Assembly (NCBI GenBank): GCA_029564465.1
Contig: JAKQPY010000154.1
Span: 10,477-74,476, forward strand
Reading direction: 5' to 3'
Length of the DNA: 64,000 nucleotides
DNA from: Bacteroidota bacterium
GTDB lineage: Bacteria; Bacteroidota; Bacteroidia; Bacteroidales; ML635J-15
The translations under genes were made by a program, and so were the position numbers. Of the stretch, positions 15,323 through 64,000 are shown in pieces. The notes below the pieces were generated by a model that worked only from the letters and a program-made list of their open reading frames with translations, was not told where the DNA came from and ran no database searches. Within the stretch, counting starts at the first letter, position 1. The number at the start of each line of letters is the position of its first letter.

Positions 15323-15335
15323 CTTCAATATTTTA

Positions 15336-15719: not shown

Positions 15720-15728
15720 AAGCCTATA

Positions 15729-17288: not shown

Positions 17289-17311
17289 TTTTAAAATCTT
17301 ATAATTACGTA

Positions 17312-17728: not shown

Positions 17729-17917
17729 TTTTTTTTGAAATTTCGTCGCAAATATACATATTCTGAAAAGGTTTAATTCTTTTTTCATTAAAAAATGAGC
17801 TTTGATTTTTATGTTCTTTAAAACAATTTTAAATTCGCCGTTCAGAGTCAGAAAGTTTTTTATTTGAAACAGACAACTCATTATTAATTTTACCGTCAAT
17901 ACATCGAAAAGGGTAAT

Positions 17918-18505
17918 ATGGATCTGAACAGCAGGGATAATGCGGAAAGAATCTTAGACGGCTGCATCAGGGGCGATTCCAAATGCCAGCAGATTCTCTA
18001 CGAGAGCCTGTATCGCAGAATGCTTGGGGTCTGCCTTCGGTACGCATCGTGTAACGAAGAAGCCAAAGACCTGTTGCATGATGGGTTCATTAAGGTCTTT
18101 GAAAAACTGAAATACTTTAAGCACAGCGGTTCGCTCGAAGGCTGGATCAGAAAAATTATTGTTAATAATGCCATCGACAACCTTCGGAAACATCGTTCGG
18201 AGTTTCTTGAATACGAAGGCGAAAACAAGTTTGAAAGGCTCGAAGATCAATCGGATGACGAAATCAATCAAATGAAACTTGCCAACCTGAAAGCCGAAAG
18301 AATTATCGAACTTATTCAGACCCTTTCCCCCGCTTACAAAGCTGTGTTTAACCTGTATGTGATCGAAGAATATTCACACAAAGAAATTGCTGAAATGCTG
18401 GGTATAAGTGTTGGGACATCGAAATCGAATCTGGCTAAGGCAAAATTGAGATTAAAACAAATGTATGTCGAAAAATATAGTCATGTTGAAAATGAAACAG
18501 TTTGA
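17918..18505 (+). CDS. ECF-type RNA polymerase sigma-70 factor
   Basis: Region 2 (DLLHDGFIKVF..W) and region 4 HTH (YSHKEIAEMLGISVGTSKSNLAKAK). Confidence 0.9.
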   Translation: MDLNSRDNAERILDGCIRGDSKCQQILYESLYRRMLGVCLRYASCNEEAKDLLHDGFIKVFEKLKYFKHSGSLEGWIRKIIVNNAIDNLRKHRSEFLEYEGENKFERLEDQSDDEINQMKLANLKAERIIELIQTLSPAYKAVFNLYVIEEYSHKEIAEMLGISVGTSKSNLAKAKLRLKQMYVEKYSHVENETV

Positions 18506-19775
18506 CCAAATTATTAAAGATAAACTAAAAGACTTCGATGCTCCGGAGAATCCGGCAGCATGGGAAGAATTTAGCCATAAAATTCCATCCGGAGGAAAGT
18601 TTTCTTCAGGTAAAATTTGGATTTCAGGGCTGGCAGGCCTGTTGCTTATTGCCCTGATAACAGGTAGCATTTTGCTTTGGGAAAACTCCAAACAAAATCA
18701 ACCCAATCAATTAAAATCCGATGAAATTCAAATAAGCGAAAACAGCACAAATACAAACACAAATACGATCAGCAGCGATAAAGTTATCACTGGGAACAAC
18801 AATCAAAACCCAGGTGTTACAGAGAACACTATTGATAATCCGATAAATTCATCGACTCAGGCAACTCTGACAAATTATGTATCGACCGAAAAAACGACTG
18901 ATTTGCAGGAAATGCCGAACATCAACTCCGGGACAAAAACAGACGACAATAATCAAAACCAAAACAATACAACTGCCAACAATAATCAGGAAACATCAGG
19001 TAATTACACAATTGAAAATATAGTTGTAAATTATAATGTACTCGAAATCTGCATTCCGGCCTTGGTATCCTTCGAAATTAAACGAGTTCCAACCAACTAT
19101 ACCTATTGCTGGAATACCGGAAACAACAAGGTCTGGAATCAAGCTGTCGTTGAAAATTATTACCCTGAACCGGGAAATTACAGTTCAAGTCTTGAGATTT
19201 ACGATCCATCGGGGAATATGGTAAAAAGAGTCTATTTGAATGACTTCACTGTTTATCCTTCACCAAAAGCAAATATTTCTTTTGAAAATAAAAATAATTT
19301 ATATACATTTAGCAGTTTATCAGAAAACAGTTTATCAAGCATCTGGAGTGTTGATAATCAGGTTTTTACACAAAGTTCTTTGGAATATATTTTCGAAAAA
19401 GATGGGAGTTACATTGTAAAGTTGATGGTTAAAAATGAAGCTGGTTGTAGCGATGAAGCTTACAAAAAGATAGATATCGTAATTGAGCACGACTATTTTG
19501 TTCCAAATGCATTCAAGCCATACAGCGACGGTGTAAATTCAACATTTGGACCAATTGGTGAAAATTTATTTGAATATTCATTTAAAATGTTTATTTTTGA
19601 TAAAACCGGAACCATGATTTTTGAAACCAATAATATCGACAATCTCTGGAACGGGAAAATAAACGGCTCAGGTGTTATGGCAGAACCCGGCGTATATACG
19701 TGGGAAATAATGACAGTGGATAAATATGGTACAAAAAAGCATAAAAAAGGACAGGTAACATTACTGAAAAACTAA
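18483..19775 (+). CDS. Anti-sigma-like single-TM protein ending in a type B T9SS (gliding-motility-associated) C-terminal domain
   Basis: Overlaps the sigma gene stop (alternative starts 18465, 18483, 18492). Short N-terminus plus TM helix ISGLAGLLLIALITGSILLW, then a low-complexity N/T/Q linker. C-terminus YFVPNAFKPYSDGVNSTFGP...GVYTWEI matches the type B CTD pattern. Confidence 0.75.
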   Translation: MLKMKQFDQIIKDKLKDFDAPENPAAWEEFSHKIPSGGKFSSGKIWISGLAGLLLIALITGSILLWENSKQNQPNQLKSDEIQISENSTNTNTNTISSDKVITGNNNQNPGVTENTIDNPINSSTQATLTNYVSTEKTTDLQEMPNINSGTKTDDNNQNQNNTTANNNQETSGNYTIENIVVNYNVLEICIPALVSFEIKRVPTNYTYCWNTGNNKVWNQAVVENYYPEPGNYSSSLEIYDPSGNMVKRVYLNDFTVYPSPKANISFENKNNLYTFSSLSENSLSSIWSVDNQVFTQSSLEYIFEKDGSYIVKLMVKNEAGCSDEAYKKIDIVIEHDYFVPNAFKPYSDGVNSTFGPIGENLFEYSFKMFIFDKTGTMIFETNNIDNLWNGKINGSGVMAEPGVYTWEIMTVDKYGTKKHKKGQVTLLKN

Positions 19776-19792
19776 CTAAAACTAAATAAACT

Positions 19793-20332
19793 ATGAAACG
19801 TTTTGCAATTTTTCTACTTCTGATATGTTCAACTGGCAGTTTATTACTTGCACAGACCGACGTGCTAGAATTCGTTAGTAAAAAACCAACCGATACCGGT
19901 TACGTGGTTTACTTTGATGTGGTTGGTCTGAACAACACGGCTCATGCTGAAAGTTTGCTGGAAATATTTTTAGATGATTCCAATGTTTCAGGAGGCAGAT
20001 TTTTTGTAAGTTCAGCAAATAAAGACCGTTACCAGCTTTATGTAAGTTCCAACGTGACAGCTAACTATATATTAAGCATTTTGCAGTCTCAGGGTTGCGA
20101 TTATGATTACAGTTCCATTATCAGAAACGGTGTTGTTCCAAAAGAAAATCCCGTATCGGCACCTCCTTCAAATATCAAGAGATCAGCGGTCGATTACCCG
20201 GGTTTCCCTGAATTTGTGAATACCGGCAATCCCCAGCAGGATGAAAAAAACTATATGGATGCTAAAAACAAATGGATTAGTGAGCACCCGCAAGAATACC
20301 AACAGCTTTTGAACGAAACTGAAAAAAAATAG
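19793..20332 (+). CDS. Hypothetical secreted protein
   Basis: Signal peptide MKRFAIFLLLICSTGSLLLAQ; no recognisable domain. Confidence 0.6.
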   Translation: MKRFAIFLLLICSTGSLLLAQTDVLEFVSKKPTDTGYVVYFDVVGLNNTAHAESLLEIFLDDSNVSGGRFFVSSANKDRYQLYVSSNVTANYILSILQSQGCDYDYSSIIRNGVVPKENPVSAPPSNIKRSAVDYPGFPEFVNTGNPQQDEKNYMDAKNKWISEHPQEYQQLLNETEKK

Positions 20333-20367
20333 AGAACCGAAAAAGATATTAAAGTAAACCTCAACAT

Positions 20368-23300
20368 ATGAAAAGAGCTATACTATTTCGCATAGCATTA
20401 CTAACATTGATGGGATTAACCTTGGTTAAGCCCTTCAATGCTTATACACAATGTAATCTGGGGGGCTCCACTACCCTGGCCGGGTCGCTGACCATGCAAG
20501 CATTTTACCAAACAATTGCCGTAAATTCTGGTACCCGATACACATTTACAGCCAATGCTACAATAACCTACATATTTTCGTTTTGCGAAGGTGGCGGTAC
20601 AAACACCGCTGATACCCAAATAGAAATTTGCAATTCGGCCGGTACTACAGTATATGCATATAATGACGATTTTTGCGGACTGGGAAGTCACTTGTCGTGG
20701 ACCTGTCCTACAACCGGTACCTATAGCATTGTAATATACCGCTACTCCTGCCAAACCACCAGTTCAGCGGTAGGTACTTTAGCCTACAGAGTTCTTACAC
20801 CGCCCAGTGTGCAAGATTGTCTCGGAGCCATACCACTGTGTTTAAGCACATATTCAACATCGGCATCCTATTCAGGTACGGGACACTATCCTGGAGAGAT
20901 ACCCACTACCGGTGGTTGCCCCGGTAATTGTATGCTAAGTGGAGAGCTTAATGATGTCTGGTACACCTTTACCCCTCAAACCGCGGGTAATGTTTCTTTT
21001 TTAATTACGCCAAATGCAGCAGATGATTATGATTGGGCTGTTTACGATATTACAACACTGGGGTGCGAAGGCATTTACACCAATATTTCTTCGGTTCAGG
21101 TAAGCTGCAACTGGTATGATGGATCCTACTACGGGGTATACCCCACAGGACCCAATGGAGGCTCAGGTATCAACTGCGGGGATGCTGATGACAATCCCTA
21201 TAATGCTGCAATTCCCGTAACAGTGGGTCATACTTATGTCGTCAATGTAAGTAATTATTCATCAACGCAAAATGGTTACAATATTAACTTTGGGGCTTCA
21301 ACAGCCTCAATTATTGACAACACAGGTGCTGTAATGGATCACCTTGTATACGCACCAGTTTGCGGATCATCTCACCTTGTGGTTCAGTTTTCTGAAAGAA
21401 TATGGTGTACTGGAGTTAGTCCTTCCGATTTTATTCTTACCGGACCCAACGGTACTTATTCTATCCTGAATGTTTGGAGCGACCTTTGTCAGGCCGGTTT
21501 GGGCAGCACTTATGGCGACACGTATTATGATGACGTATGGAATCTGGCATTAGGTGATTATCTGCAGCAGGGAGGTACTTATACTTTAACAGCAGTTGGC
21601 GGGGGTGTTTCCGATATTTGTTCAAATTATTCACCCCAAAATAGTTTATCATTTACAATTGCCGGTATCAACGCTTCTGTTGCATCCACTAATCCTACCT
21701 GTAGCTATTCAACCAATGGAACAATTACGCTTTCAGGAATCTCCGGTGGAACTCCACCGTATTCAACCTCATGGATAGGTCCAAGTGGATTTACGTCAAC
21801 ATCAAATTCACTGACCGGGCTTTCACCGGGAACATATAGTGTAACCGTCACCGATACCTACGGAATTTGTCAGTGGTTACGAACTGTAGTACTAACCGCT
21901 CCTCCCGCAGTCGCGGCAAACGTATCTATTACACATCCGGGATGCGGAGTCAGCAATGGAAGCGTATTGGTAACACCAACCAGCGGGGTTTCACCCTGGA
22001 CATTACAACTGGGTGCGGCTACACAATCCGGGGTAACAACCAACTATACTTTTACCAATTTGGCAGGGGGCACTTACACCTTGATTGTGACTGATGCATC
22101 GGGTTGTACATCTAGTCAATCTGTAACGCTGACAGCACCTGCTAATCCCGATGCTACATTTACATATAACGGGAATCAGTGTTTTAGTCCTGCACATTCG
22201 TTTAACTTTACACATACCGGTACTGTAGTACCTGGAGAAACCTATTTATGGACATTTTCCGGTGGAACACCGGCAACCTCAACAGCACATAACCCGACAG
22301 GGGTAACTTTTGGCACATCAGGTTCTCACAATGTAACACTGACTATAACTGCTGGTGGTTGCAGTGATACTGAAACAATCAGTGTAACCGCTTATCCAAA
22401 CCCAACCCCTGTAGTTACTGTTACCAATGCCACTTGTGGCTCCTGTAACGGTGGAGCCAGTATTGCTACTGCATACAGTTCTTATTCATGGTCGACCGGC
22501 GGCACTGGTAACAGCATCAGTGGTCGCTGCCCCGGAGCTTATTCAGTTACAGTAACTGATGCCAATGGATGTACCGGCTCAGCGTCATTTAATATAGCCA
22601 ATTCAGGAAGCAATCCGACTGTTACAGTAGTCACAACTCCACCTTCCTGTGCAGGCGGATGCAATGGCTCTGCTACGGTAAATGCCTCAGGAGCTCCTTC
22701 ATACACCTATAATTATTCAGCCGGATCAACACCCAATAATCAAACAACAGGTGGCTTGTGTGCCGGTTCATATTCTGTTACCGTTGCCGATGGAACAAAT
22801 CCGTCGTGTGCCACAGTCGAAAATTTCACCATTACAAACCCAATTGGGATGTCGCTTACCATGGCTTCGACCGGGGCAACCTGCGGGCTTGCTAATGGTA
22901 GCGCAAGTGTTAGCGTAAGTGGAGGAACACTACCTTACAATTATAACTGGACACCGGGCGGCGGAGTTACCGGAACGATTAACGGAGTTGCTGCGGGGTC
23001 CTATTCTGCTACTGTTACCGATGGTGCAGGTTGTACTGCTACAAATTCGGTAACTGTTCCTGATTTGGGAGTACCATTTACTATAACTCCCAGTGTAATT
23101 TCAAATGCTACATGCAATAATGTTTGTAATGGTTCTGCTACCGTAGCAGTTGCCGGAGGAACAGGCCCCTTCACCTATGCCTGGAGCAGTGGCACAAATC
23201 CTGCCTTACAAACCGTAACAGGTCTCTGCGATGGTGTTGTTAATGTTACCGTTACAGCAGGCGGTTGCTCTGTTATAGGTAATGTTACAATAACTGAACC

Positions 23301-50766: not shown

Positions 50767-51996
50767 ATGATCACCGCAAGTACTGCAATTATTCTCGATA
50801 AGAGGTTCAAAAACAAAAACGGTAAATACTCCGTTAAGCTCAGAATTACAAATAACAGAGTTCAAAAGCACTATTCAACCGGTTACCACCTATCCGAAGA
50901 AGAGTGGATGGCTTCTCAGCAGGATAACCCCCGCAGGGAAAACAAAGAACATAAACTGGTATTCTCCCAAATCGAAGCCAAAGCCCTGGGCGTTATCAAA
51001 ACCCTTGATGCTTTTTCTTTCGAGCTATTCGAAAAAAAGTTCTTTCAAAACCCCGAGTCACGCAAAGATTTATTAGTGTTGATGCAACAGTACATCGATA
51101 AGCTAAAATCCGAAAACCGCCTTACCACTGCCGAAAGTTTCCGCAGTGCCTTGCGTTCATTTGTGGCCTTTTCGAAAACCCTGAAATCCGGCAAAGTCAT
51201 TATCAACCAGGTAACCCCCCAATGGCTCCAAAAATATGAAACCTTCATGATTGATAAGGGTTCCTCCATTACTACCGTTGGAATATACCTGCGAAACCTC
51301 CGTGCAGTTTTCAACCTTGCCATCGAAGAAGGAATCATCGACAGCAGCTTCTACCCTTTCGGTAAACGTAAATATCAGATACCTGCCGGTCAGAACCTAA
51401 AAAAAGCCCTTACACTTGCCGATATTCAAAAAATCATCAAATACAAGCCGGAATCGAAAGCCGAGGGAAAAGCTCGCGACCTCTGGATATTCAGTTACCT
51501 GTGCAATGGGGCCAACATCAAAGATATTGCCCTATTGCAGTACAAAAACATCAACGGCTCTTCTTTAACCTTTATAAGGGCCAAAACAGCCCGTTCAACA
51601 AGAGGCCAGATGAAACCCATTAAAGTAATGTTATTGCCCGAAATCACCGCTATAATCGAAAAATGGGGCACTAATTCCAATAACCCCGATGACTATGTGT
51701 TCGGTATTATTTCTCAACCTGATAATCCGGCTGAAAGGCTCGCTAAAATTCGTCAGGCTACGAAAACAATCAACAAATACATTGGCCGTATTGGTTCCGA
51801 ACTTCAATTCGATGTAAAACTAACAACCTATTATGCCCGCCATTCATTTGCTACCGTCCTGAAGCGTTCCGGTGCCCCCATCGAGTTTATCAGCGAAAGC
51901 CTCGGACATAAGGACCTTAAAACTACCGAAAACTACCTCGATAGTTTCGAAGATGATGCAAAGCTCAATTTTCAGAAAAAACTACTGGGTTTGTAA
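50767..51996 (+). CDS. Tyrosine site-specific recombinase (phage integrase family, Bacteroidota type with an N-terminal arm-binding domain)
   Basis: C-terminal catalytic segment YYARHSFATVLKRSGAPIEFISESLGHKDLKTTENYL (R, HxxR, Y). Confidence 0.9.
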   Translation: MITASTAIILDKRFKNKNGKYSVKLRITNNRVQKHYSTGYHLSEEEWMASQQDNPRRENKEHKLVFSQIEAKALGVIKTLDAFSFELFEKKFFQNPESRKDLLVLMQQYIDKLKSENRLTTAESFRSALRSFVAFSKTLKSGKVIINQVTPQWLQKYETFMIDKGSSITTVGIYLRNLRAVFNLAIEEGIIDSSFYPFGKRKYQIPAGQNLKKALTLADIQKIIKYKPESKAEGKARDLWIFSYLCNGANIKDIALLQYKNINGSSLTFIRAKTARSTRGQMKPIKVMLLPEITAIIEKWGTNSNNPDDYVFGIISQPDNPAERLAKIRQATKTINKYIGRIGSELQFDVKLTTYYARHSFATVLKRSGAPIEFISESLGHKDLKTTENYLDSFEDDAKLNFQKKLLGL

Positions 51997-52014: not shown

Positions 52015-53136
52015 TTGCATTATTATTGTTTGATGAATGTTTCATTTACCATATTCAGCAACATCTTAAATGGTGACCTCTTACCGGATGCCTCGCACAA
52101 TCAGGACCACTTCATTTTTTCATCTATTCTCGCCAATAAACTAAGGAGTAATTCTGATTGTTTTTATTCCTATTTTAAAGTTTTTAATGATTCTATTTCT
52201 CCTTTTTATCCAAATCTGTCGTCCTGTGTTTTTCTCTTTGACAATACTTCAAAAGATTGTCATTTGCCAGATTATTTTCATTCATTATCATTCCAACCAT
52301 TTTTCGATAAGAAATCTGAGTTTTATTTCTATCTGATTAAAAATGAGACTGACCGCATCTATAGTTATTCGTGTAAAATAGTTTCAGCAGCTGAGTCTCC
52401 CGAAATTAAATCTTACGAATCTTATAAAATATTAAGTCAAATTTTGCTATTATTCGACTTGAGTGCTTCTGTTTCTTGGGGCTCTACTGATGCACTCTAT
52501 GTAATTTACAATCTGAGAATTGCTCTATTGCGTCTCTATTATATGTGTCAAATCAGGTTTTCTGAGTACACAGCTGAGCATTTTATAACCGATACTGAAG
52601 TCCTTGCTAAAATCGACCCCCAAGGTTTTTTTAACGACAATAATCCTTCTCCTATTGTTAAAGTATTCAAGGCTTTTCTGAATGCAAAATCTAATTCTGA
52701 CCTAAAATCTGCTCCTACTGCTTTGGTTGATTCTTTTCCGTTAAAGTCTGTAGCAAAGAGTTTACCGTTTACTTTTAGAAACTCTGATTTTCGTCCTGGT
52801 TTTAAAGGTAAAGTATCGTTCAACGACATTATTAACCCCGATAAATTCGCCAATTTCGAAAAAAATCTTTTTGAGTATGAATACATTGATACTGATTATA
52901 ACTTTACCAACAAACATGGTAAGAAAAAAGAAATAGCAGCTCTTTTTAAGATTATTATTGAAAAGAAATTCTTCAGGGACAATCTTTATAAATCCCGTTC
53001 AAAATTGCGACCGGCTCACATTAGGCAATATCTCGATTTTCGGTATAATACAAAAACCGATCAGGAATTTCGTAAATGCACAATCGAATTTATCAATCAA
53101 CTAAAAAATAACCACTATTGGGTTGACCAATTATAG
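52015..53136 (+). CDS. Hypothetical island protein
   Basis: Long same-strand ORF 18 nt after int with no recognisable motif. Start uncertain (52015 or 52033). Confidence 0.55.
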   Translation: MHYYCLMNVSFTIFSNILNGDLLPDASHNQDHFIFSSILANKLRSNSDCFYSYFKVFNDSISPFYPNLSSCVFLFDNTSKDCHLPDYFHSLSFQPFFDKKSEFYFYLIKNETDRIYSYSCKIVSAAESPEIKSYESYKILSQILLLFDLSASVSWGSTDALYVIYNLRIALLRLYYMCQIRFSEYTAEHFITDTEVLAKIDPQGFFNDNNPSPIVKVFKAFLNAKSNSDLKSAPTALVDSFPLKSVAKSLPFTFRNSDFRPGFKGKVSFNDIINPDKFANFEKNLFEYEYIDTDYNFTNKHGKKKEIAALFKIIIEKKFFRDNLYKSRSKLRPAHIRQYLDFRYNTKTDQEFRKCTIEFINQLKNNHYWVDQL

Positions 53137-53925: not shown

Positions 53926-56163
53926 ATGAGTGTTCAAACTAACATAGAGCCTGCAATTCTCGTTACATTATTTTCAGGGTTTACAAACCCTGTCGAGAAT
54001 ATCCCATTTTCCGCCTTGCTGAATCGCATTCAGCAAGGCGATTTTAAAAAAAATGTGGAAGAAATTCGGAGTTTAAAAGCTTCAGGTAACTTCGAAAAAG
54101 CCGATATTGTGAAAAAGCAATTATTAGCATTTACGCCTTCTGCAACGTTTAAAACAGGTAGAAAGCCTGAATATATTGACAATTATTATGGTCTTATCCA
54201 TCTCGATTATGACAAAGTTCCGGCTGAGGAACTCTCCAATCTTCGTAAAAAGATCGAAGCAGTGCCCTATACTTTTGCATGTTTTCTAAGTCCCAGTGGT
54301 AATGGATTTAAGGTCTTTGTACTGACAATGGCTTCTAAAAGTCAGCATACCATTTTCTACGATAAAGTAATGCGTTACTACAATCAAGAACTGGGCATTT
54401 CGGCAGATGCAAAATGTAAGGACATAACGCGGCTTTGTTTCTGTTCTTTCGATCCACTGGCCTTCATCAACAATGATTCCTTGTATTTTGATGATCCGGT
54501 CATAACTCCTTTGCCAGTTAAACAAGCCAGTCCGGTTAATGTGTGTAACAATTTTGAAGCACTCGACTTCTGTCTAAAGCTCACTGAAACAAAATGTCAA
54601 TATGTACAGGGTGAACGCAACAATTTCATTTATTTATTTGCTTCCAATTGCAATCGATCTGGCATCGAACCATCCGAGGCTGTGAACTTTGTTTTGGCTA
54701 ACTTCGATTTATCTCCTCGTGAGGTAGAAAACTGCGTCAAAAGTGCTTACTCAAATCATGTACAAGAGTTTGCAAAATTTGCAAACTCTGCAGTAATTCC
54801 CAAAAACGATGATGTTTCTGTATTCGAGGATGTCCTCAAGTCAACTGTATTATTGTCAGATTCAGTGTTCGAAAACTTACCCTCAATCTTGAAGCATGGC
54901 GCATCAGCATTTTCTGATAAACGTGAAAGGGACGTTTTTATAACCGGTGCTATTGCAGTACTTAGTGGTTGTCTGCCGAATGTAAGTGGTGTTTATGCTC
55001 AACAAACAGTTTATCCCAATATGTTTTGCTTCATCATTGCTCCTGCAGCTAGTGGTAAGGGCGCATTAAAATTCTCTAAAATGCTCGCGGATGATTTACA
55101 TTCCGAAATGTTAAGTCAAAGTCGTGAAGCATTAAAGGAATATGAGGCTGATTTAGCCGACTATCGAAACCGTGCGCGCTTTCCCAAAAAAGGCGAACCA
55201 TTGGGGGATGCTCCTGAAAAACCATTATTCAAAGTTTTATACATTCCGGCAAATTCTAGCTATGCTAAAATAATATCTCATATTGAGCAGAACTTAGGTG
55301 CCGGTATAATCTGCGAAACAGAAGCGGATACAATGGGTAATGTTTTTAAGCAAGAATGGGGCTCATATTCCGACCTCCTGCGCAAGTCTTTCCATCATGA
55401 AAGAATCTCAAGCTCAAAAAAAACAAATAACGAATACATTGAAGTTGAAAACCCTCGGGTTTCTATCGCGCTTTCTGGTACTCCAGCTCAGGTAGCCGGG
55501 CTTATATCATCCTCCGAAGATGGCCTTTTTTCCAGGTTTATTTTCTATGCTTTTAAAGTTGAACAACAATGGCGCGATGTTTCGCCTTATGCCAACAATG
55601 TGAATCTCACTGATCATTTCTCTGCATTGTCTAAAATTATTACAGAATTACACCTGTTTCTTGATAATAGTCCCACAACTATTTGCCTTACTCGCAACCA
55701 GTGGGAAAAACTTAACGAAACATGTGCTAGCTGGCTTAGCTATTCCGTTGTATTCAATGGTGAAGATTCCGGGAGTATTGTAAAACGTTTTGGCCTAATT
55801 ATTTTCCGCTTATGTATGGTCTTCTCTGCTTTACGGAAATTTGAAGCTAAATCCGAGTATGAAACAATAAATTGTTCTAACATTGATTTTGAAAACGCTG
55901 TGAGCTTAGTGCATTGCTATTTGTTGCATAGTTTCTTCATGTTTCAAAATCTCCCCCGACAAGATTCTGCTTTTGTTGCATTTAAATCAAACAACAAATC
56001 AATGTTCTATGAAGCTTTGCCCGTCGAATTTAAGCGTTCCGATGCTATTGCTTTGGGTCCTAAATTCAATCTTTCCGAAAGGTCAATCGATGGCCTGTTA
56101 AAATCTCTTCTGGGAAAACACCTTTCTCAACCATCATTTGGTGTCTATAAAAAAATAGTTTAA
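53926..56163 (+). CDS. Primase-like N-terminal domain + DUF3987-type P-loop protein (island replication/initiation protein)
   Basis: N-terminal FACFLSPSGNGFKVFV and CKDITRLCFCSFDP resemble BT4734/VirE-type primase-related domains. The central part has a P-loop, IIAPAASGKGALKF. Confidence 0.7.
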   Translation: MSVQTNIEPAILVTLFSGFTNPVENIPFSALLNRIQQGDFKKNVEEIRSLKASGNFEKADIVKKQLLAFTPSATFKTGRKPEYIDNYYGLIHLDYDKVPAEELSNLRKKIEAVPYTFACFLSPSGNGFKVFVLTMASKSQHTIFYDKVMRYYNQELGISADAKCKDITRLCFCSFDPLAFINNDSLYFDDPVITPLPVKQASPVNVCNNFEALDFCLKLTETKCQYVQGERNNFIYLFASNCNRSGIEPSEAVNFVLANFDLSPREVENCVKSAYSNHVQEFAKFANSAVIPKNDDVSVFEDVLKSTVLLSDSVFENLPSILKHGASAFSDKRERDVFITGAIAVLSGCLPNVSGVYAQQTVYPNMFCFIIAPAASGKGALKFSKMLADDLHSEMLSQSREALKEYEADLADYRNRARFPKKGEPLGDAPEKPLFKVLYIPANSSYAKIISHIEQNLGAGIICETEADTMGNVFKQEWGSYSDLLRKSFHHERISSSKKTNNEYIEVENPRVSIALSGTPAQVAGLISSSEDGLFSRFIFYAFKVEQQWRDVSPYANNVNLTDHFSALSKIITELHLFLDNSPTTICLTRNQWEKLNETCASWLSYSVVFNGEDSGSIVKRFGLIIFRLCMVFSALRKFEAKSEYETINCSNIDFENAVSLVHCYLLHSFFMFQNLPRQDSAFVAFKSNNKSMFYEALPVEFKRSDAIALGPKFNLSERSIDGLLKSLLGKHLSQPSFGVYKKIV

Positions 56164-56172
56164 CATGGGATT

Positions 56173-56209
56173 AACAGGTGAAACATGCTGGTTTCACCTG
56201 TTTTTTTTT
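56173..56209 (+). terminator. Strong rho-independent terminator separating the island core from the cargo
   Basis: AACAGGTGAAACatgctgGTTTCACCTGTTttttttt. Confidence 0.85.
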
Positions 56210-56544
56210 ATTATATTCTTATTTTTCCTTTGTTAATAGCTCCAGTATTTTTACACCAATATTACACGAAATCTGTTTGATAGATATGTGAATAACTTTT
56301 GTGCCTGTTTTTGTCTTTATTTCCTTTTTGTTTTCTTATCTTTGTTCAAATGCTTCGCTTTTATGAATTTCAGTAGGGCGCAACCTGTATATGTATGTTT
56401 TTTAGAAGACTTATGTTCCGGTAAATTCGTTCTGCATTCTTCTCAGGTAATTTATTCTGCAATCATTTCATTTTCTCAACAAATTCTCCTTGCAATCTTG
56501 CATCCGTTTTGCAAAAACATTATCCCATTATCAACTTTTACAAA

Positions 56545-59451
56545 ATGCAAAACCAAATGCTAATAACTTCCTATCATGCAAGGTATTTTGCATTTGAATT
56601 AACTCGAAGAAGATCTGCTGAGGACATTGGCAAATTAACTGCTGCCCTACAGGATGCTCAGGTGGATTTAAACCCGCATCAGGTTGATGCAGCTTTGTTT
56701 GCGTTCAAATCTCCTTTGTCTAAGGGTGCTTTATTAGCCGACGAAGTGGGTCTGGGCAAAACTATCGAAGCTGGTATAATTCTCTCTCAAAAATGGGCTG
56801 AGCACAAACGTAAACTCCTTATCATTGCTCCTGCTAACTTACGTAAGCAATGGAATCAGGAACTTCTTGATAAGTTCTTTTTACCCTCTGACATTCTCGA
56901 ATCAAAATCTTTTAATACTGAAATTAAAAACGGAGTCAAAAACCCTTTCGACCAGCAATCTATTGTAATTTCTTCTTTTCAGTTTATCCGGTCAAAAGAG
57001 TTATTTGTTTCCTCTGTCAAATGGGACCTGGTTATCATTGACGAAGCCCATCGGCTACGCAACGTATATAAACCAAGCAATAAAATTGCAAATTCACTAA
57101 AAAGCACACTGGCTCCTTTTCCCAAAGTATTACTGACTGCAACTCCCTTACAAAACTCCCTTATGGAATTGTTCGGATTGGTCAGCATTATTGATGATTA
57201 CATTTTTGGTGATATTAAGAGCTTTAAATCTCAATTTTCTAAACTTACTGCCGAACAGAACTTCTCCGACCTGAAAACCCGTTTAAATACTGTTTGCCGT
57301 CGTACTTTGCGTCGTCAGGTTTCCGAATACATCAATTACACAAACAGAGTTGCAATTCTCGAAGAATTTATTCCTACTAATGAGGAGCAGAAGCTTTACG
57401 ATTGGGTTTCTGAATATCTTCGTACTCCGGTCTTATATGCGCTCCCTGCAAGCCAAAGGCATTTAATGACTCTCATTCTTCGCAAACTCCTCGCCTCATC
57501 TTCCTTCGCTATCGCTGATACGTTCGGTGCTATCGCTTCTCGTCTTGAAAAATTAATTTCAAAACTACCGGTCGATTGCTTGCCTGACTTTACTGAAAAC
57601 TTTGATACTTTCGATGAATTATCAGAGGAATGGAACGATGACGATATTGATACCGATTCTGCCTTTTCTTTAACCGATGAACAAATTGATGAAATAAAAA
57701 ACGAGATTACATTACTCAGATCTTTTCAAACCCTGGCTATAAACATTCGTAAAAACGCTAAAGGCGAAAAACTAAAGACTGCCTTGAAAAAAGGCTTCGA
57801 AAAGCTAAAAGAATTGAATGCCAACCAAAAAGCAATAATCTTTACTGAATCTACTCGCACCCAATTATACCTTAAAAACCTTCTTGAGTCTTCCGGTTTC
57901 TCAGGTAAAATTGTTTTATTCAATGGTACCAATAACGACTCCCATTCGCAGAATATTTACAAAGCTTGGTTAAAAAAACATGCCGGTACCGACCGAATTA
58001 CGGGCTCTAAAACAGCCGATTTACGTCAGTCCATTGTCGATTATTTTCGTGACGATGCCGTTATTATGATTGCCACCGAAGCTGCTGCCGAAGGAATTAA
58101 CCTTCAGTTCTGCTCACTGGTTGTAAACTACGACTTGCCTTGGAACCCTCAGCGAATCGAACAACGTATCGGCAGATGCCACCGATATGGCCAAAAATTC
58201 GATGTCGTTGTCGTGAATTTCCTCAATAAATCAAATGCTGCCGACCAACGTGTGTACCAACTCCTCGACGAAAAATTCAAACTGTTTAGCGGTGTTTTTG
58301 GGGCTAGCGACGAAGTGTTGGGTTCCCTCGAATCTGGTGTTGACTTCGAAAAGCGAATTGCTGAAATTTATCAAAACTGTCGGTCAGAGTCCGAAATAAA
58401 ACTTGCATTCGATGCTTTGCAGTCCGAAATGGAAATCGAAATCGAAAAAAACATTGACATTGCACGCAAAAACCTTCTCGAGAACTTCGACGAAGATGTT
58501 CACCACAAGCTTCGAATTAGCCTCGAACGTGGGCGCGAATACCTGAATAAATTCGAAAACTGGCTCTGGCAAATCACCACTTTCTACTTGAACGATCTTA
58601 TCCAACTCGACAAAACATCAGATTCCTTTGTCCTGAAGGAAAACCCATTTAAAAAACAAACTATAAACCTTGGCCCTTACCATTTATTGCGTTCTTCGGG
58701 TAACTCTAAAAAATCAGAGATTGTAATTCCCGATTCCGCTAATATTTACCGAATTGGTCATCCTTTAGCGCAACAAATTATAACCGAATGCAAAAACATT
58801 CCAACTCCGACTGCAGAACTAATTTTCAATTATTCAGCCTCTAATGTAAAAATATCAGTACTTGAATCCTACGTTGGCACATCCGGTTGGTTGCAATTAA
58901 AGCAACTCACTGTGTGTTCTTTCGAAGAAGAAGACTTTCTTATTTTCTCGGCTATTTCCGAAAACTCAGAAGAAATCATCCCCGAAATAGCTTACAAACT
59001 CTTTTCCCTGCAGGCGCAAATTTCTGAACCCGTTAATCTTCCCTACGAAACCATATCCCATCTGCAAAACATCTATAACAAACAAAAACTTGAACTCCTC
59101 AACGATAGCTTACAAAAAAACGCCGCCTGGTTCGACGAAGAATATGCAAAACTCGACCGCTGGGCCGACGACATGAAACTCAGCCTTGAGAAAGAAATTA
59201 AAGACATTGATGCCGAAATCAAACTTCGTAAAGCCGAGGTCAGGAAAATTCTCGACTTACGGTTGAAACTCAACGAACAAAGAGCCATAAAAGACCTCGG
59301 AAAAAAACGCTCCGACAAAAGGCGTAATCTTTTCGAAGCCCAGGATAGCATCGATTCCAAGAAAGAAAATCTCCTTTCCGAAATCGAAAAACGCCTAAAC
59401 CATAAGTCTCACGAAATCAATCTATTTACTATCAAATGGAAAATAAATTAA
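56545..59451 (+). CDS. SNF2-family (SF2) helicase with an uncharacterised C-terminal domain and a terminal coiled coil
   Basis: Motifs ADEVGLGKT (I), IIDEAHRLRN (II), LLLTATPLQN (III), QRIGRCHRYGQ (VI). Start at MQNQMLITSYHARYFAFELTRR. The C-terminal ~350 aa lack recognisable nuclease or methylase motifs and end in a K/E-rich coiled coil. Confidence 0.9.
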   Translation: MQNQMLITSYHARYFAFELTRRRSAEDIGKLTAALQDAQVDLNPHQVDAALFAFKSPLSKGALLADEVGLGKTIEAGIILSQKWAEHKRKLLIIAPANLRKQWNQELLDKFFLPSDILESKSFNTEIKNGVKNPFDQQSIVISSFQFIRSKELFVSSVKWDLVIIDEAHRLRNVYKPSNKIANSLKSTLAPFPKVLLTATPLQNSLMELFGLVSIIDDYIFGDIKSFKSQFSKLTAEQNFSDLKTRLNTVCRRTLRRQVSEYINYTNRVAILEEFIPTNEEQKLYDWVSEYLRTPVLYALPASQRHLMTLILRKLLASSSFAIADTFGAIASRLEKLISKLPVDCLPDFTENFDTFDELSEEWNDDDIDTDSAFSLTDEQIDEIKNEITLLRSFQTLAINIRKNAKGEKLKTALKKGFEKLKELNANQKAIIFTESTRTQLYLKNLLESSGFSGKIVLFNGTNNDSHSQNIYKAWLKKHAGTDRITGSKTADLRQSIVDYFRDDAVIMIATEAAAEGINLQFCSLVVNYDLPWNPQRIEQRIGRCHRYGQKFDVVVVNFLNKSNAADQRVYQLLDEKFKLFSGVFGASDEVLGSLESGVDFEKRIAEIYQNCRSESEIKLAFDALQSEMEIEIEKNIDIARKNLLENFDEDVHHKLRISLERGREYLNKFENWLWQITTFYLNDLIQLDKTSDSFVLKENPFKKQTINLGPYHLLRSSGNSKKSEIVIPDSANIYRIGHPLAQQIITECKNIPTPTAELIFNYSASNVKISVLESYVGTSGWLQLKQLTVCSFEEEDFLIFSAISENSEEIIPEIAYKLFSLQAQISEPVNLPYETISHLQNIYNKQKLELLNDSLQKNAAWFDEEYAKLDRWADDMKLSLEKEIKDIDAEIKLRKAEVRKILDLRLKLNEQRAIKDLGKKRSDKRRNLFEAQDSIDSKKENLLSEIEKRLNHKSHEINLFTIKWKIN

Positions 59452-59520
59452 ACAAAATAGCCTTTGAATATTCCCTTAAGAAAATACTTAATTGTAGTTT
59501 TTAACTAAACCATTTTTATT

Positions 59521-61323
59521 ATGTCCTTATTCCATAGCACAATAAAAAGTTCTGATTTAGTCGAAGGTATTTCGAAAAACAAACAACAATTTAAATTTTA
59601 TTCCGATTTGGCTATTCAAGGAACTTTCGAACTCAATTCCTACAACAATAGCACTAAATTTATAACTTTCCAAAATTGCACTTTCAATTCATTCTGCAAT
59701 ATTTCAGGTCATTTAAACTGCGGGATTAAGTTTATTGATTGCTCCTTTGATAAATCTTTATTTTTTAAACATATTCTAATTGATGATTTTAACATTGACG
59801 GAGCACCTTTATACGATAGCATTCATATATCTCATTGTACGATAAAAGGTGACTTGACTTTTTTCTCTGAAAATTCAATTTTAAAAAACATCAAAATAGA
59901 ATGCAGTACAATAGTTGGTCTCACTCTAGCAGGTCTGTATTCATCTGAAGGGGGGATTAAATTCTTAAATAATAAAGTTGAAAAATCTTCCTACATTGAT
60001 AATTGTAAATTGTTAAAAAACATCCATTTTGCTAACTCCGAATTTCTTGGTGACGTTAGTATGTCCGATAATACATGCTCTTCCATTATTATTCGCGAAA
60101 CTACCTTTAATGCTGCCTTTGCTCAATTCGAAAATATTTTAGAACAGAATATTTCATTAATAAATTCTGTTTTCAAAGGAAATACATTAATTAATGCGTG
60201 CTGTATAAAACAATTATTATCATTGAACAACAGCACTTTTCATAATCAATTTTCTATCTGTTTCTACAATCCGAATTACAAAACCATAAAAATCGGTGAA
60301 ATAAAAAATATTGAATTAACATCTTGCTCATTTTTGAATGGTGTTTTATTCAGTGGCGGCTCAAAAGGCAGCCTCTTCTCTGATATAAAATTCATTCACA
60401 TTATCGCTTCAAAAAAACTCACAGGCGAAATTGTATTTGATCATTTAAATATCAATTTATTACGTATTGAAGGTTCAAACTTCGATGCAAGCTTTTTCTT
60501 CAAACGCTGTCTTTTTACTCATATTCAATTCTCAAGATTTACCAATTTTGGTTCTCTTCATTTAATTGGTTCAGAAGCATTGCCTAACCAAAATACTGAA
60601 ACAATTTTCAAAATAATAGATTCGAATATAGGAAAAACTAATTTTTCCAATTTTTCATTCGCAAAATTTAAAAAAATTCAAATTGAAAATAGTGATTTAA
60701 CTCAAATTACAGCGTCTAACGTAACTTGGTTCAATCAAAAACAAATCTCTTCTCCGAAGATTTTCTACTCGAATAAACTTATTGTTCGATTAAAATCATG
60801 TGTTAAAAACAGTGTTAAAAATTACGAAGAAAACGACAAGCTTGTTAAAGAATTCCGTCAAATGCGTGAACTATTCCGTCAACTTAAATATGCTATGGAC
60901 CAACAGGGCAATCGTATTCAAGCCCTTGTTTTCAAACAATACGAAATGTCTTTTTTCCGTAAAGAACTCATACTTACAAAAAAACTCTGGAATTTCGATC
61001 GTCTGATTCTTTGGCTTAGTTGTTCCAACAATCATGGCCAAAACTGGATAAAGCCACTTCTAATTCTCACCTTGGTTGGCACTCCCCTATTCTCTTTACT
61101 ACTAATAATAGCCTTTAACTCCGGTTTCTCTCATTTCGCTGATGTGGTCTTTGAGTACAAACGTGTTTACCCAAATCTCTTGAACCCTGTTTTCACACTG
61201 AAAGACATTTTCGGTGAGCAGGTCTTTTCTGGTTGGCTTGTTTCAATTGCGGTTCTATATCGCATTCTTTACGCTTATCTAGTCTTTCAGGTTGTTTCAG
61301 CTTTCCGCAAATACATCAAATAA
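59521..61323 (+). CDS. Repeat (solenoid-like) protein with a C-terminal two-helix membrane anchor, unknown family
   Basis: No signal peptide. About 16 imperfect 21-23-aa repeats (I.F.NC.F...), a helical linker (FRQMRELFRQLKYAMDQQGNRIQAL), then TM helices IKPLLILTLVGTPLFSLLLIIAF and WLVSIAVLYRILYAYLVFQVVSAF. Confidence 0.8.
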   Translation: MSLFHSTIKSSDLVEGISKNKQQFKFYSDLAIQGTFELNSYNNSTKFITFQNCTFNSFCNISGHLNCGIKFIDCSFDKSLFFKHILIDDFNIDGAPLYDSIHISHCTIKGDLTFFSENSILKNIKIECSTIVGLTLAGLYSSEGGIKFLNNKVEKSSYIDNCKLLKNIHFANSEFLGDVSMSDNTCSSIIIRETTFNAAFAQFENILEQNISLINSVFKGNTLINACCIKQLLSLNNSTFHNQFSICFYNPNYKTIKIGEIKNIELTSCSFLNGVLFSGGSKGSLFSDIKFIHIIASKKLTGEIVFDHLNINLLRIEGSNFDASFFFKRCLFTHIQFSRFTNFGSLHLIGSEALPNQNTETIFKIIDSNIGKTNFSNFSFAKFKKIQIENSDLTQITASNVTWFNQKQISSPKIFYSNKLIVRLKSCVKNSVKNYEENDKLVKEFRQMRELFRQLKYAMDQQGNRIQALVFKQYEMSFFRKELILTKKLWNFDRLILWLSCSNNHGQNWIKPLLILTLVGTPLFSLLLIIAFNSGFSHFADVVFEYKRVYPNLLNPVFTLKDIFGEQVFSGWLVSIAVLYRILYAYLVFQVVSAFRKYIK

Positions 61324-61618
61324 ATGGCAGCAGCTAAATCTGAAATATTATTAACAGGTTTTTCTCGTTTTTGGGGGAAAACTTTATTTTTTTGGCATTC
61401 ATTTATTTCCCATTCTCAGTATTTTACATCCATGGAAACGATGTATTTACCTACCGACAACCATCAAAAAAAGCCCGCGAAAATCGCAGGCTTTCAAGGC
61501 TTTCACTTAGTTACATTCATTAAAAATGAAGAGGCTTTACTAAGTATTACATCACAAATATATATCTCAAAAAGAAAAATACCGCATATTTTAACAATTA
61601 TTTTTTAATTATTTTATT

Positions 61619-62428
61619 ATGTCGTTGAATTACAGCGAAATACAAAAATACATATCACAGGCTCGACTGCAACATTACGAAAATATTTGCTGCGCAGAAC
61701 CTCGTAAAACCCTGAAACTATACCAAACAAACCTACGTCTATCTCAAGCCTTCTACCCGATACTCTCCTTATTTGAGGTAATCCTTCGTAATGCAATTGA
61801 CTTTGAGTTAACCCTCCTCTTTTCCGACAGTAATTGGTTGATTAATCAGCAATCTGGGTTTATGAGCCATCCTTCTTTTACTTACACCGATAGACGCACT
61901 GGTGCTATAAGACACAACCATTTTTTAAAAAATAGCGTGGCAAAATCTATAACTGACCTTGGTGCAGCATCTACTCATGGAAAAATCATTGCTGACTTAA
62001 AATTCGGATATTGGACTGCACTTTTCGACATTACACCCTACCGTATTTTATCTGGGCGACCTATTCAAATATTTTCGAATTTACCCGCTGGAGCAAATCG
62101 TATTTTAGTCCATCAAAAACTCAACCGAATTCGAGATTTTCGCAATCGTATTTATCATAACGAACCCATTATTTTCGGAAAAGATACCTCAGGAAATGCA
62201 ACATTCGACTTATCAGTAGCACACCAAATATACACCGACATTAAGGAATGTTTCATTTGGCTAAACCTCGATTTTGACAAATGGACAAAACGCATTAACA
62301 ATATAGATTTCGAACTTGAAAGAGCCAATCGTGTTATGAAACATTATCCGCGCTTTTCATATTATTGCTGTCGTTTTTCTCTGGGCTGCAAGCATTACAG
62401 AAGGAAATATGCAAGAATAAATAATTAA
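61619..62428 (+). CDS. Abi_2-family (AbiD/AbiF-like) abortive-infection protein
   Basis: LYQTNLRLSQAFYPILSLFEVILRNAI, FGYWTALF and IRDFRNRIYHNEPI match the conserved blocks of the Abi_2 family as I remember them. Confidence 0.7.
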   Translation: MSLNYSEIQKYISQARLQHYENICCAEPRKTLKLYQTNLRLSQAFYPILSLFEVILRNAIDFELTLLFSDSNWLINQQSGFMSHPSFTYTDRRTGAIRHNHFLKNSVAKSITDLGAASTHGKIIADLKFGYWTALFDITPYRILSGRPIQIFSNLPAGANRILVHQKLNRIRDFRNRIYHNEPIIFGKDTSGNATFDLSVAHQIYTDIKECFIWLNLDFDKWTKRINNIDFELERANRVMKHYPRFSYYCCRFSLGCKHYRRKYARINN

Positions 62429-62465: not shown

Positions 62466-63056
62466 ATGACTCAGATTACCAATTTTAATCTTAACTCAAG
62501 AGACCCTTTCTCGCCGTTAATATGGTTTCTTGCAATTATTTTATTTTTGGCAATAATTGTTCCCATTCTTTTATTCCTAGTCTTCAATGTAACGGTTAGC
62601 ATGTATTTTTTTATTAACAATGTTACCCACTGTCCAATAAACGATGATGTAATTTCTATTATTTCTTCTAAACTTTTCAGCAAACCATCTGATGATTTTC
62701 TTGCAGCCATAGTCGCCCTCTTATTTACTTCCCTTAGTATTGCTGTTCCTATTATTGTTTCAAACATTGCCAATAGTTTGAAGCCTTATAAAGATAGCGA
62801 AATCCAAAAAATGTTTATTAAAGAACCTGCATTTAAGCGAGTTTTATTGGTTATTGCTCTGCTGGCTATTTCACTGTTTCTTTGGTTTTTTGTTGGTTCA
62901 ACTTTCTTTACCGGTTTTATATTTCTAATTTTTGGAATATATGCAATAATTGTATTTTGTCTGTTTCTCAGGAGGTCTATTCAATATATTACTGCAACCG
63001 ATGACGTAGTGTTACAAGATTTGTACTCAAATATAAATAAAGAAATAAATGGATAA
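62466..63056 (+). CDS. Four-TM membrane protein of unknown function
   Basis: Four hydrophobic helices (LIWFLAIILFLAIIVPILLFLVF, FLAAIVALLFTSLSIAVPIIV, VLLVIALLAISLFLWFFVG, FIFLIFGIYAIIVFCLFL). Confidence 0.65.
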   Translation: MTQITNFNLNSRDPFSPLIWFLAIILFLAIIVPILLFLVFNVTVSMYFFINNVTHCPINDDVISIISSKLFSKPSDDFLAAIVALLFTSLSIAVPIIVSNIANSLKPYKDSEIQKMFIKEPAFKRVLLVIALLAISLFLWFFVGSTFFTGFIFLIFGIYAIIVFCLFLRRSIQYITATDDVVLQDLYSNINKEING

Positions 63057-64000
63057 TGCTTCTGTTTTTCTCGAAAACATTCAAAAAGTTGGAAAAGTAG
63101 CCAGCGAAAAAATAAACAAAGGTCTGGAAGAAGATACTCAAATAATTGTTGACAATCTTAAAATGTATTTCTTGCAAATCATTGACTTAAAAACTTCGAA
63201 CCCAGCAAAATTCAAATCATTGTTAGTTCGTCCTCGGTTTAAAAAACTTGCAGACCCTGAAAATATTCCTTTTAACCTTTCCGAAGAGGATGATTTATCT
63301 TACGGAGGCATCCATGTATATTGCTCTGTTCTATTTAAAATTTTCAAAGAAGCTTACGAAAACGAATTACTAAATACAGCTCAACATACAGTAACTACAA
63401 TCGAGTCTATTTTAATTGAGCTCTTGAAAAAAGGTAAAGACTATCTGACTATCGCTCAATATTTTATTGATTCATTGCAGAGAATGAACATACGAATAAA
63501 CCAATCGCCTTCTAAAATAACAGTAATAAATCATCATGTTGCATATAGTTGGTTTTTTCGGCTTGTCTTCAAGGATGATTTTGCAATAGACGGTATTGAT
63601 ATTGCAAAAATTACACTCTTTAGTTCTATTCGCGAAATAATTAATAATGACATTGACGATATTTTTATTTCTTTTGTTGAATATATTCATTTGGGGCATT
63701 ATATGCCTGACTTCTCACTTATTCCTCAGTTAGATTTTAGAACAATTAACCATAGAGATCCGAAAGTAAGGGGCTACGAAAAATTAAGTAATGAGTTTAT
63801 ACATAATTCTTGTAAGGCTTTAATTTATTCGGATTATTTAGGTTCGCAAAAGAAATTAGAAGAAATTAGAAATTCAATTAATGAATTGCCTGACATTGAT
63901 GCTGCTGAAAAATTAACGCTAATTTCAAAGCATGAAGAATATGCAAAAAAAATGTTTAAATACAAATCACTACAACAAGTAGTGATTTGGTTAGGTACAT
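63049..64000 (+). CDS. Unknown protein, 3'-truncated by the window edge (not in the ORF track)
   Basis: Read by hand: ATG at 63049 overlaps the previous stop (ATGGATAA). The frame stays open for 317 codons to the window end (MDNASVFLENIQKVGKV...QQVVIWLGT). No domain recognised. Confidence 0.65.
   Translation, partial: MDNASVFLENIQKVGKVASEKINKGLEEDTQIIVDNLKMYFLQIIDLKTSNPAKFKSLLVRPRFKKLADPENIPFNLSEEDDLSYGGIHVYCSVLFKIFKEAYENELLNTAQHTVTTIESILIELLKKGKDYLTIAQYFIDSLQRMNIRINQSPSKITVINHHVAYSWFFRLVFKDDFAIDGIDIAKITLFSSIREIINNDIDDIFISFVEYIHLGHYMPDFSLIPQLDFRTINHRDPKVRGYEKLSNEFIHNSCKALIYSDYLGSQKKLEEIRNSINELPDIDAAEKLTLISKHEEYAKKMFKYKSLQQVVIWLGT

Follow-up and report, generated by a model that had tools for sequence, protein, structure and literature searches.

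The window analysed here is a stretch of 64,000 nucleotides (nt) from a Bacteroidota bacterium of the order Bacteroidales (GenBank assembly GCA_029564465.1, contig JAKQPY010000154.1, positions 10,477 to 74,476 of the forward strand). It carries two neighbouring genes at positions 56545-61323, of which the first encodes an SNF2-family ATPase of 968 amino acids (aa) and the second a 600-aa protein of an unnamed family. An initial annotation had proposed them as a candidate two-gene defence system. According to our analysis, the two genes are not a dedicated two-gene system; the locus is the front end of a type III restriction cassette, which is led by the SNF2 gene and holds the 600-aa gene in its variable slot. 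The latter is one of many interchangeable passengers that lodge between SNF2 and the methyltransferase gene Mod and in other restriction operons as well. Judging from its architecture, its conservation gradient and its gene context, the 600-aa protein is probably a membrane effector of the abortive-infection type.

The locus

The unit consists of the following features, all on the plus strand; structural features of the proteins are predictions from AlphaFold2 (AF2) models or hydropathy.

56173-56202, plus strand: intrinsic terminator of the upstream primase/DUF3987 gene, 12-bp stem (5 GC pairs), then a T-run
56210-56544, plus strand: AT-rich leader, 335 nt, 30% GC, no credible open reading frame (ORF)
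56545-59451, plus strand: SNF2-family ATPase, 968 aa (Pfam SNF2-rel_dom 6e-34, Helicase_C 8e-22)
58441-59451, plus strand: family-specific C-terminal region of the SNF2 protein (aa 633-968), with a long helix, an alpha/beta domain and an antiparallel coiled-coil hairpin
59521-61323, plus strand: 600-aa protein of an unnamed family, in the variable slot of the cassette
59590-60720, plus strand: predicted cytoplasmic beta-helix of the 600-aa protein, aa ~24-400 (AF2), mean pairwise identity 23%
60856-61053, plus strand: most conserved cytoplasmic helices, before the first transmembrane (TM) helix, with the motifs RELFRQLK...QGNRIQALVFKQYEM and SNxHGQNWxKP, mean pairwise identity 45%
61054-61122, plus strand: predicted TM helix 1, aa 512-534, Kyte-Doolittle peak 2.55
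61231-61302, plus strand: predicted TM helix 2, aa 571-594 (hydropathy and AF2), then the conserved tail FQxVSAFRKYIK
61356-61384, plus strand: terminator-like hairpin with T-run, 33 nt past the stop of the 600-aa gene
61470-61494, plus strand: second, imperfect hairpin

The initial annotation had described a discrete unit that starts after a strong terminator and a leader, and this description was borne out, as were the coordinates of both genes and the gap of 69 nt between them. The terminator at 56173-56202 represents the 5' boundary of the unit. Alternative starts of the SNF2 ORF exist at 56509 (TTG) and 56557 (ATG). Many relatives have a small helix-turn-helix (HTH) gene in place of the leader, which is annotated as MAD1 in Escherichia coli and is absent from the leader of the window. 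PGAP labels the small HTH gene overlapping the E. coli SNF2 start as MADS protein MAD1 (L180 11814-12014; L179 6909-7109; related loci are numbered with an L throughout), but the locus is no MADS system, and the gene probably represents a generic controller-type regulator. At the 3' end, the imperfect hairpin noted initially is real, but the better terminator-like site at 61356-61384 had been overlooked. Furthermore, gene callers annotate a 94-aa ORF at 61324-61608 in every assembly; this stretch has 30% GC, includes two hairpins, one of them terminator-like, and is probably non-coding.

The SNF2 protein

The SNF2 protein is full length and its helicase motifs are intact, which confirms the motifs I, II and VI claimed initially: GLGKT (Walker A) at residues 69-73, DEAH at 166-169 and QRIGRCHRYGQ (motif VI) at 540-550. 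Its best named match is the NCBIfam model NF038318 DISARM_DrmD_b with 689 bits (cutoff 950) over protein residues 34-675. Since only the model positions 22-657 of 868 are matched, the C-terminal third of the window protein differs from DrmD_b. Pfam gave no match over the last ~300 aa. The AF2 model of the C-terminal region reached a predicted local distance difference test (pLDDT) score of 86.7. A fold search with this model in the PDB returned nothing below E=0.06 (RapA at E=0.1) and no nuclease, and the earlier statement that nuclease or methylase motifs are missing from this region stands.

The helicase belongs to a known, little-studied kind, namely the type III restriction-associated DrmD-like SNF2 proteins. 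A profile of its C-terminal domain found at least 576 loci in one-genome-per-species assemblies (185,579 species genomes), distributed over Bacteroidota, Chlorobiota, Deltaproteobacteria, Acidobacteriota, Planctomycetota, Patescibacteria and further groups. For the 80 best loci, we called ORFs with a simple longest-ORF procedure, which was used for all related loci, and clustered the neighbours. A single conserved layout emerged, in which the SNF2 gene (~965-985 aa) is followed by 0-4 variable genes, a ~555-aa protein and a ~895-aa protein. The ~555-aa protein is the type III methyltransferase Mod (PADLOC MTase_III, 630 bits, full length) and the ~895-aa protein the type III restriction subunit Res (REase_III; Pfam ResIII and SWI2_SNF2); the profiles used for Mod and Res derive from these related loci themselves, with representatives checked in PADLOC. 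Among the SNF2 loci having at least 4.7 kb of downstream sequence, Mod is present in 55 of 56 and Res in 54 of 56. The idea of a dedicated pair of SNF2 and solenoid protein was thus not supported, because the regular partners of this helicase are Mod and Res. A member of the 600-aa family was found in only 1 of the 80 SNF2 loci, where it is located three genes away from SNF2.

Between SNF2 and Mod there is a slot for inserted genes, which is occupied in 49 of 64 loci; the distance from the SNF2 stop to the Mod start has a median of 1063 nt and a maximum of 4927 nt. Representative occupants are AlbA_2+HATPase_c_4, YhcG/DUF1016, Bro-N/DinD-like, RhuM, GmrSD, LmuB-like ATPase, PDC-M04A and Abi genes, and an HTH+M78 gene adjoining a small toxin-like gene (HigB-like/M78) also occurs there. 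Some slot clusters carry no annotation, e.g. c18 with 156 aa (relatives L014-L093). The slot is a hot spot for inserted genes, and mining it will likely yield more candidates for defence genes.

Similar cassettes exist in enterobacteria. The order HTH, SNF2-related protein, insertion sequence, Abi family protein, hypothetical protein, site-specific DNA-methyltransferase and DEAD/DEAH helicase occurs on a Salmonella IncFIB plasmid as well as on an E. coli chromosome, and the SNF2 protein of this cassette, which has the Abi gene in its slot, is 46% identical end to end to the window protein. A second E. coli type (L181) comprises an SNF2 protein of 963 aa, a methyltransferase of 1034 aa and a helicase of 1126 aa; its SNF2 protein shares 45% identity with the window protein over the full length, including the C-terminal domain. 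Both the gene order and the length of Res that follows from the published D1024A/D1043A mutants lead us to infer that L181 is of the EcoR22I type, for which the association with an SNF2-like (DrmD-related) helicase has already been noted (Silas et al., bioRxiv 10.1101/2023.04.06.535777). In that study, the transposon insertions that suppressed Ocr-induced death were all located in mod and res. The SNF2 protein of the sister island L001 is 68% identical to the window protein. The window SNF2 is an intact orthologue of the ancillary DrmD-like helicase which leads the SNF2-slot-Mod-Res type III cassettes.

A different cassette was seen in L007 (14135-21848), consisting of an SNF2 gene (1051 aa), DUF4391, a methyltransferase and Res, with a HipA toxin-antitoxin pair between DUF4391 and the methylase. 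This suggests that the slot logic also applies to an unrelated operon of helicase and restriction genes.

Mod and Res are missing from the window

In the window and in a further 1.4 kb taken from a sister contig, six-frame hmmsearch gave no match at E<=1 for Mod and none for Res, and remnants of either gene were not found within the window. The visible sequence extends 5991 nt past the SNF2 stop (to ~65442) without Mod, farther than in any relative. The initial annotation had stated that no methyltransferase or nuclease partner is visible on the island; this is true of the window, but it represents an exceptional, 1-in-56 situation, as nearly all relatives carry Mod and Res, including the sister island L001, where both directly follow the pair of SNF2 and a 596-aa member of the 600-aa family. 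Since Mod and Res are missing from everything visible, the helicase appears orphaned here within the visible sequence, and the two genes may have been lost, replaced by other cargo, or lie farther on. An intact DrmD-like helicase without Mod and Res offers a natural test of any activity of its own.

The 600-aa protein

The 600-aa protein has no match in Pfam, NCBIfam, PADLOC or PHROGs, and a sequence profile searched against the PDB gave nothing below E=0.15. Its N-terminus is not hydrophobic, in agreement with the proposed absence of a signal peptide. An AF2 model made with 11 homologues reached a pLDDT of 82.5 overall and more than 90 over most of the solenoid; it places helices at residues 420-486, and its two long C-terminal helices span residues 510-532 and 571-599. 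The two hydrophobic C-terminal helices with a loop of ~35 aa, as proposed initially, were recovered at residues 512-534 and 571-594, separated by 36 aa. The C-terminal tail contains 3 basic and no acidic residues and the loop between the TM helices is net acidic. Because of this charge distribution, an N-in/C-in topology with the beta-helix in the cytoplasm would fit the sequence. Altogether, hydropathy and the AF2 model bear out the predicted architecture of a cytoplasmic beta-solenoid which is tethered by a C-terminal anchor of two TM helices.

The initial annotation had counted ~16 repeats of 21-23 aa. AF2 does predict a beta-helix over residues ~24-400, but the sequence repeats are degenerate, with hydrophobic autocorrelation peaks at lags 5, 11 and 21 reaching z = 2-3 only, and the solenoid therefore rests mainly on the model. 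Foldseek matched the 600-aa model with generic right-handed beta-helices only (E>=1e-3), while Qnr, MfpA and AlbG appeared at E~0.5. The fold check that had been recommended thus points to a right-handed beta-helix, and a pentapeptide match was obtained only in relatives, the window protein itself being without a Pfam match. Because two relatives, P0267 (39.1 bits) and P0253 (27.7), pass the Pfam Pentapeptide_3 cutoff of 27 (several others stay below), the modelled solenoid may represent a divergent pentapeptide-type helix with a distant relationship to the pentapeptide repeats. DNA mimicry of the Qnr or MfpA kind was considered and rejected, as the beta-helix is not acidic (net charge +1 here, family mean -6).

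Conservation increases toward the C-terminus. The beta-helix is variable, and the conserved helices before TM helix 1 contain the invariant or near-invariant columns R453, Q454, L455, K456, G463, E475, N503, G506 and W509. TM helix 2 together with the FQxVSAFRKYIK tail reaches a mean pairwise identity of 48%.

The 600-aa family and its gene contexts

The family first seemed rare, with 10 word-index matches, an impression that was overturned by an exhaustive HMMER profile search, which returned 602 clusters at E<=1e-30 (2934 at E<=1e-10; clusters at 50% identity). The top 150 clusters are nearly all full length (560-630 aa). Every sampled member is labelled "hypothetical protein", and without a name or an entry in the four family collections searched the protein does belong to an undescribed family, as had been supposed. 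The plasmid and phage collections gave no match, and in IMG/VR only 5 loci were found. We consider the family important, as it is large (at least 600 clusters at 50% identity), unnamed, and recurs inside restriction operons and defence islands.

Gene contexts were counted in 79 metagenome loci; for this family as for SNF2, the inspection covered the 80 best loci. The SNF2 family described above lies upstream in 7 of the 49 loci with enough sequence, and type III Mod lies downstream in 11 of 55; 12 of 64 are inside the cassette. Homologues of the two genes thus rarely occur together, seen from either side, given these 7 of 49 loci and the single, non-adjacent case among the 80 SNF2 loci. Scanning of 103 neighbours identified type III methylases (8), Type ISP proteins (4) and HsdM (3) as the commonest immediate ones. 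The following examples illustrate the range:

Sister island L001: integrase...primase, SNF2, 596-aa gene, Mod, Res, prokaryotic Argonaute
DinD-like gene, 566-aa gene, Mod, partial gene in the Res position (contig end)
HsdR, 604-aa gene, Mrr
Type I restriction island: SLFN_AlbA_2, 607-aa gene, PLD
ImmA-like gene, 584-aa gene, near RloB and AAA_21
615-aa gene, TPR protein, then a different SNF2-DUF4391-methyltransferase-Res cassette

In the loci outside the cassette, neighbours two to four genes away include AAA_23/AAA_15/AAA_21, UvrD, AbiEii, OLD-TOPRIM, ArdC and integrase domains as well as housekeeping genes. The members inside the cassette are spread over at least three deep subfamilies and interleaved with members from other contexts; for example, L119 and L121 are in a cassette, and L011 (50-54% identity) is beside an ImmA-like gene.

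A passenger with a probable effector function

We explain the locus best as the front end of a type III cassette whose 600-aa gene is an autonomous passenger of the abortive-infection type, an explanation that we hold with moderate confidence. The 600-aa protein would act as a self-contained sensor-effector, in which the variable cytoplasmic beta-helix would recognise a cue of a phage or mobile element, and the conserved C-terminal module would oligomerise and compromise the inner membrane. Inside a restriction operon, where its gene would often be co-transcribed with the restriction genes, it would back up restriction as a second line, in the way that PrrC backs up EcoPrrI, and the SNF2 protein would not be required for its action. 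This effector reading is based on the fact that genes embedded in restriction operons are recognised as back-up effectors, with PrrC in EcoPrrI as the model and Abi2, RloC and RhuM as further examples (PMC3710099), and that restriction systems can themselves set off cell death when they are inhibited (10.1101/2023.04.06.535777).

Several observations weigh against this explanation. The TM region of the AF2 model, i.e. the putative effector part, is of low confidence (pLDDT 46-69), and ~80% of the family loci are without restriction genes nearby, some having housekeeping neighbours. Moreover, the adjacency of SNF2 and a 600-aa family gene recurs in two divergent islands, the window and L001, whose integrases are 22% and whose SNF2 proteins are 68% identical, and it is also found in L116, L128 and L159 with gaps of 3-14 nt; such gaps imply co-transcription, and a functional link is possible in these three loci. 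In the window the pair persists without Mod and Res, and given this persistence the two genes could be able to work together. Finally, Mod and Res may lie past ~65442, which concerns the orphan state of the helicase.

Among the other explanations, a guard function survives best, in which the 600-aa protein is coupled to SNF2, HsdR or Res, held inactive, and released when a phage anti-restriction factor disables the complex, in a PrrC-like or Ronin-like manner. Restriction operons are known hosts of such guards, approximately one in five family members is inside or beside a restriction operon of one of three types, the gaps to SNF2 and Mod are very tight (-1 to 14 nt), and the association with the SNF2 cassette (7/49) is far above chance when compared with at least 576 such loci among the 185,579 species genomes. 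Nevertheless, most members have no restriction gene in view, and the partners are of unrelated types, which makes a conserved specific protein-protein interface unlikely. In addition, the conserved part of the protein is the membrane module and not a candidate docking surface, and the window has no Mod or Res to guard. We regard a guard function as unlikely.

We give still less weight to the assumption that the family has no immune role and acts, e.g., as a mobile membrane-anchored scaffold or regulator, with the window SNF2 being the decaying remnant of a broken cassette. The many unannotated or housekeeping neighbours would agree with this assumption, as would the near absence of the family from phage, plasmid and viral collections, the lack of a known effector domain, and the 1-in-56 state of an SNF2 gene without Mod and Res. 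It conflicts with the recurrence of the family in restriction operons and near Abi, toxin-antitoxin, OLD-like and Gabija-like genes, with the combination of a variable N-terminal domain and a conserved C-terminal membrane module, which is the usual pattern of immune sensor-effectors, and with the full-length window SNF2 and its intact motifs.

It also seems quite improbable to us that the family represents a new widespread immune class, in which a membrane-tethered, pentapeptide-like beta-helix sensor with a conserved 2-TM pore would be wired to restriction translocases (SNF2, HsdR, Res) and be triggered by a phage that inactivates or overloads them; in the window, it would form a minimal two-gene system together with the orphan SNF2.

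Least probable of all is the obligate system of the initial annotation, where foreign DNA would be sensed or processed by the helicase, which would signal to a solenoid effector tethered to the membrane. The two genes are indeed adjacent in the window, L001-L003/L094, L116, L128 and L159, are kept together in the window although Mod and Res are absent, and no gene is better conserved between the two islands than SNF2. On the other hand, only 1 of 80 SNF2 loci has the partner and not adjacent to it, 42 of 49 partner loci lack this SNF2, all the other loci with adjacency and with visible downstream sequence carry Mod, and Res where the contig reaches, leaving the window as the sole exception, the two proteins show no co-divergence between the window and L001 (SNF2 68% vs 37% for the 600-aa protein), and their genes differ in GC content (0.398 for SNF2 vs 0.314 for the 600-aa gene), with the 600-aa-family gene lying 7-8 GC points below SNF2, Mod and Res in both islands.

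The integrative element and its other genes

A Bacteroidota-style integrative element spans 50.7-64 kb of the window. This supports the proposal that the pair is accessory, defence-type cargo on such an element with an Abi gene as neighbour. Apart from the unit treated above, it includes the following genes:

50767-51996: tyrosine integrase
52015-53136: 373-aa protein without family match, after the integrase
between the 373-aa gene and the primase: two HTH_17 genes
53926-56163: BT4734-like primase with DUF3987 domain
61619-62428, plus strand: Abi_2 / PD-T4-5-like gene (Pfam Abi_2 4.9e-5, 24.1 bits, cutoff 25.6; PADLOC PD-T4-5 5.6e-20)
62466-63056: 196-aa ORF with several TM segments, weak PADLOC KwaA match (E=1.2e-3)
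63049-64000, continuing to ~65331 (L013 13529-15811): 760-aa protein without Pfam, PADLOC or PHROG match

A tRNA gene near the integrase was not found in 45-64 kb. The 373-aa protein keeps its position in the L001 island and is 27% identical to its counterpart in that otherwise divergent element; its gene appears to be a backbone gene of this element type. Downstream of the 600-aa gene, the Abi_2 / PD-T4-5-like gene is another slot-type passenger. A homologue of it sits between SNF2 and Mod in L023, and genes of the Abi family hold the SNF2-Mod slot in the E. coli and Salmonella cassettes (L179, L180). The 196-aa ORF overlaps the start of the 760-aa gene by 8 nt; possibly, these two represent a two-gene unit of their own. 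In five independent assemblies, the sequence stops right after the 760-aa gene, at the start of a minus-strand gene fragment. In the L001 island (15220-20398), the genes after Res encode a Piwi-domain protein (prokaryotic Argonaute), an AAA_21 ATPase and an unknown protein of 396 aa.

Comparison with known systems

As the initial annotation had presumed, no named system combines the SNF2 and the 600-aa protein. The analogies to DISARM and Zorya drawn initially do not hold as memberships, since the scores are below the cutoffs and the partner genes were not seen.

DISARM provides the closest helicase core, with DrmD (NF038318; PADLOC PDLC02619) as best family match of the window SNF2. Class 1 DISARM was rejected, because the score for NF038318 stays below its cutoff and NF038317 reached 252 bits against 610. 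The last ~210 positions of the DrmD model are unmatched, the C-terminal domain of the window protein being different. DrmA, DrmB (DUF1998), DrmC (PLD) and DrmMI were not detected in the Pfam, PADLOC and NCBIfam scans of the window neighbours, and the conserved neighbours in the relatives are MTase_III and REase_III instead.

Zorya consists of the ZorAB membrane motor and the SNF2 nuclease ZorD, and it resembles the window locus in having an SNF2-family ATPase adjoining a membrane protein in a defence context. However, the window SNF2 reached only 94.7 bits with ZorD (cutoff 1500) and carries no Mrr-like nuclease, the 600-aa protein has no MotA/ExbB or OmpA-like domain and no PADLOC Zorya or Pfam match, and ZorC is missing.

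The Hma / BREX-related (BR) systems combine an SNF2 helicase with a DUF499 ATPase and a DUF1156 N6-methyltransferase (PMC12839542). They were rejected as well, as the HmaA match (1.8e-49) is much weaker than the DrmD match and the window region contains neither a DUF499 nor a DUF1156 gene. MADS was considered because of the MAD1 label on the E. coli HTH gene; its preprint names neither an SNF2 nor a helicase component and regards MAD1 as accessory and regulatory, and we therefore discarded MADS.

The EcoR22I type is among the closest systems, given the full-length relationship of the window SNF2 to that of its presumed member L181 and the relatives which nearly always precede type III Mod and Res. 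The window has the SNF2 protein with the family-specific C-terminal domain of the SNF2-slot-Mod-Res cassettes, and it differs by the absence of Mod and Res from view. In most relatives of the Bacteroidota type, Mod and Res measure ~555 and ~895 aa and are thus shorter than in the EcoR22I type.

The 600-aa protein shares with the pentapeptide-repeat proteins (Qnr, MfpA, AlbG; Pentapeptide_3, Pentapeptide_4) the predicted right-handed beta-solenoid and the period-5 and ~21-residue signals, but it has no Pfam match, is approximately double their length and carries a fused membrane anchor. Compared to the restriction-embedded effectors PrrC/EcoPrrI, RloC, Abi2 and RhuM, it lacks a HEPN, ABC-ATPase or known toxin domain, its putative effector being the 2-TM module, and most members of its family are not beside restriction genes. 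The likeness to these effectors lies in the position of the gene within or at the border of type III, type I and type ISP restriction loci, a position which it shares with Abi, RhuM, AlbA_2 and toxin-antitoxin genes. If the 600-aa protein is indeed a single-gene sensor-effector, bacterial immunity would gain a new effector module, and the pentapeptide-like fold a new use within it.

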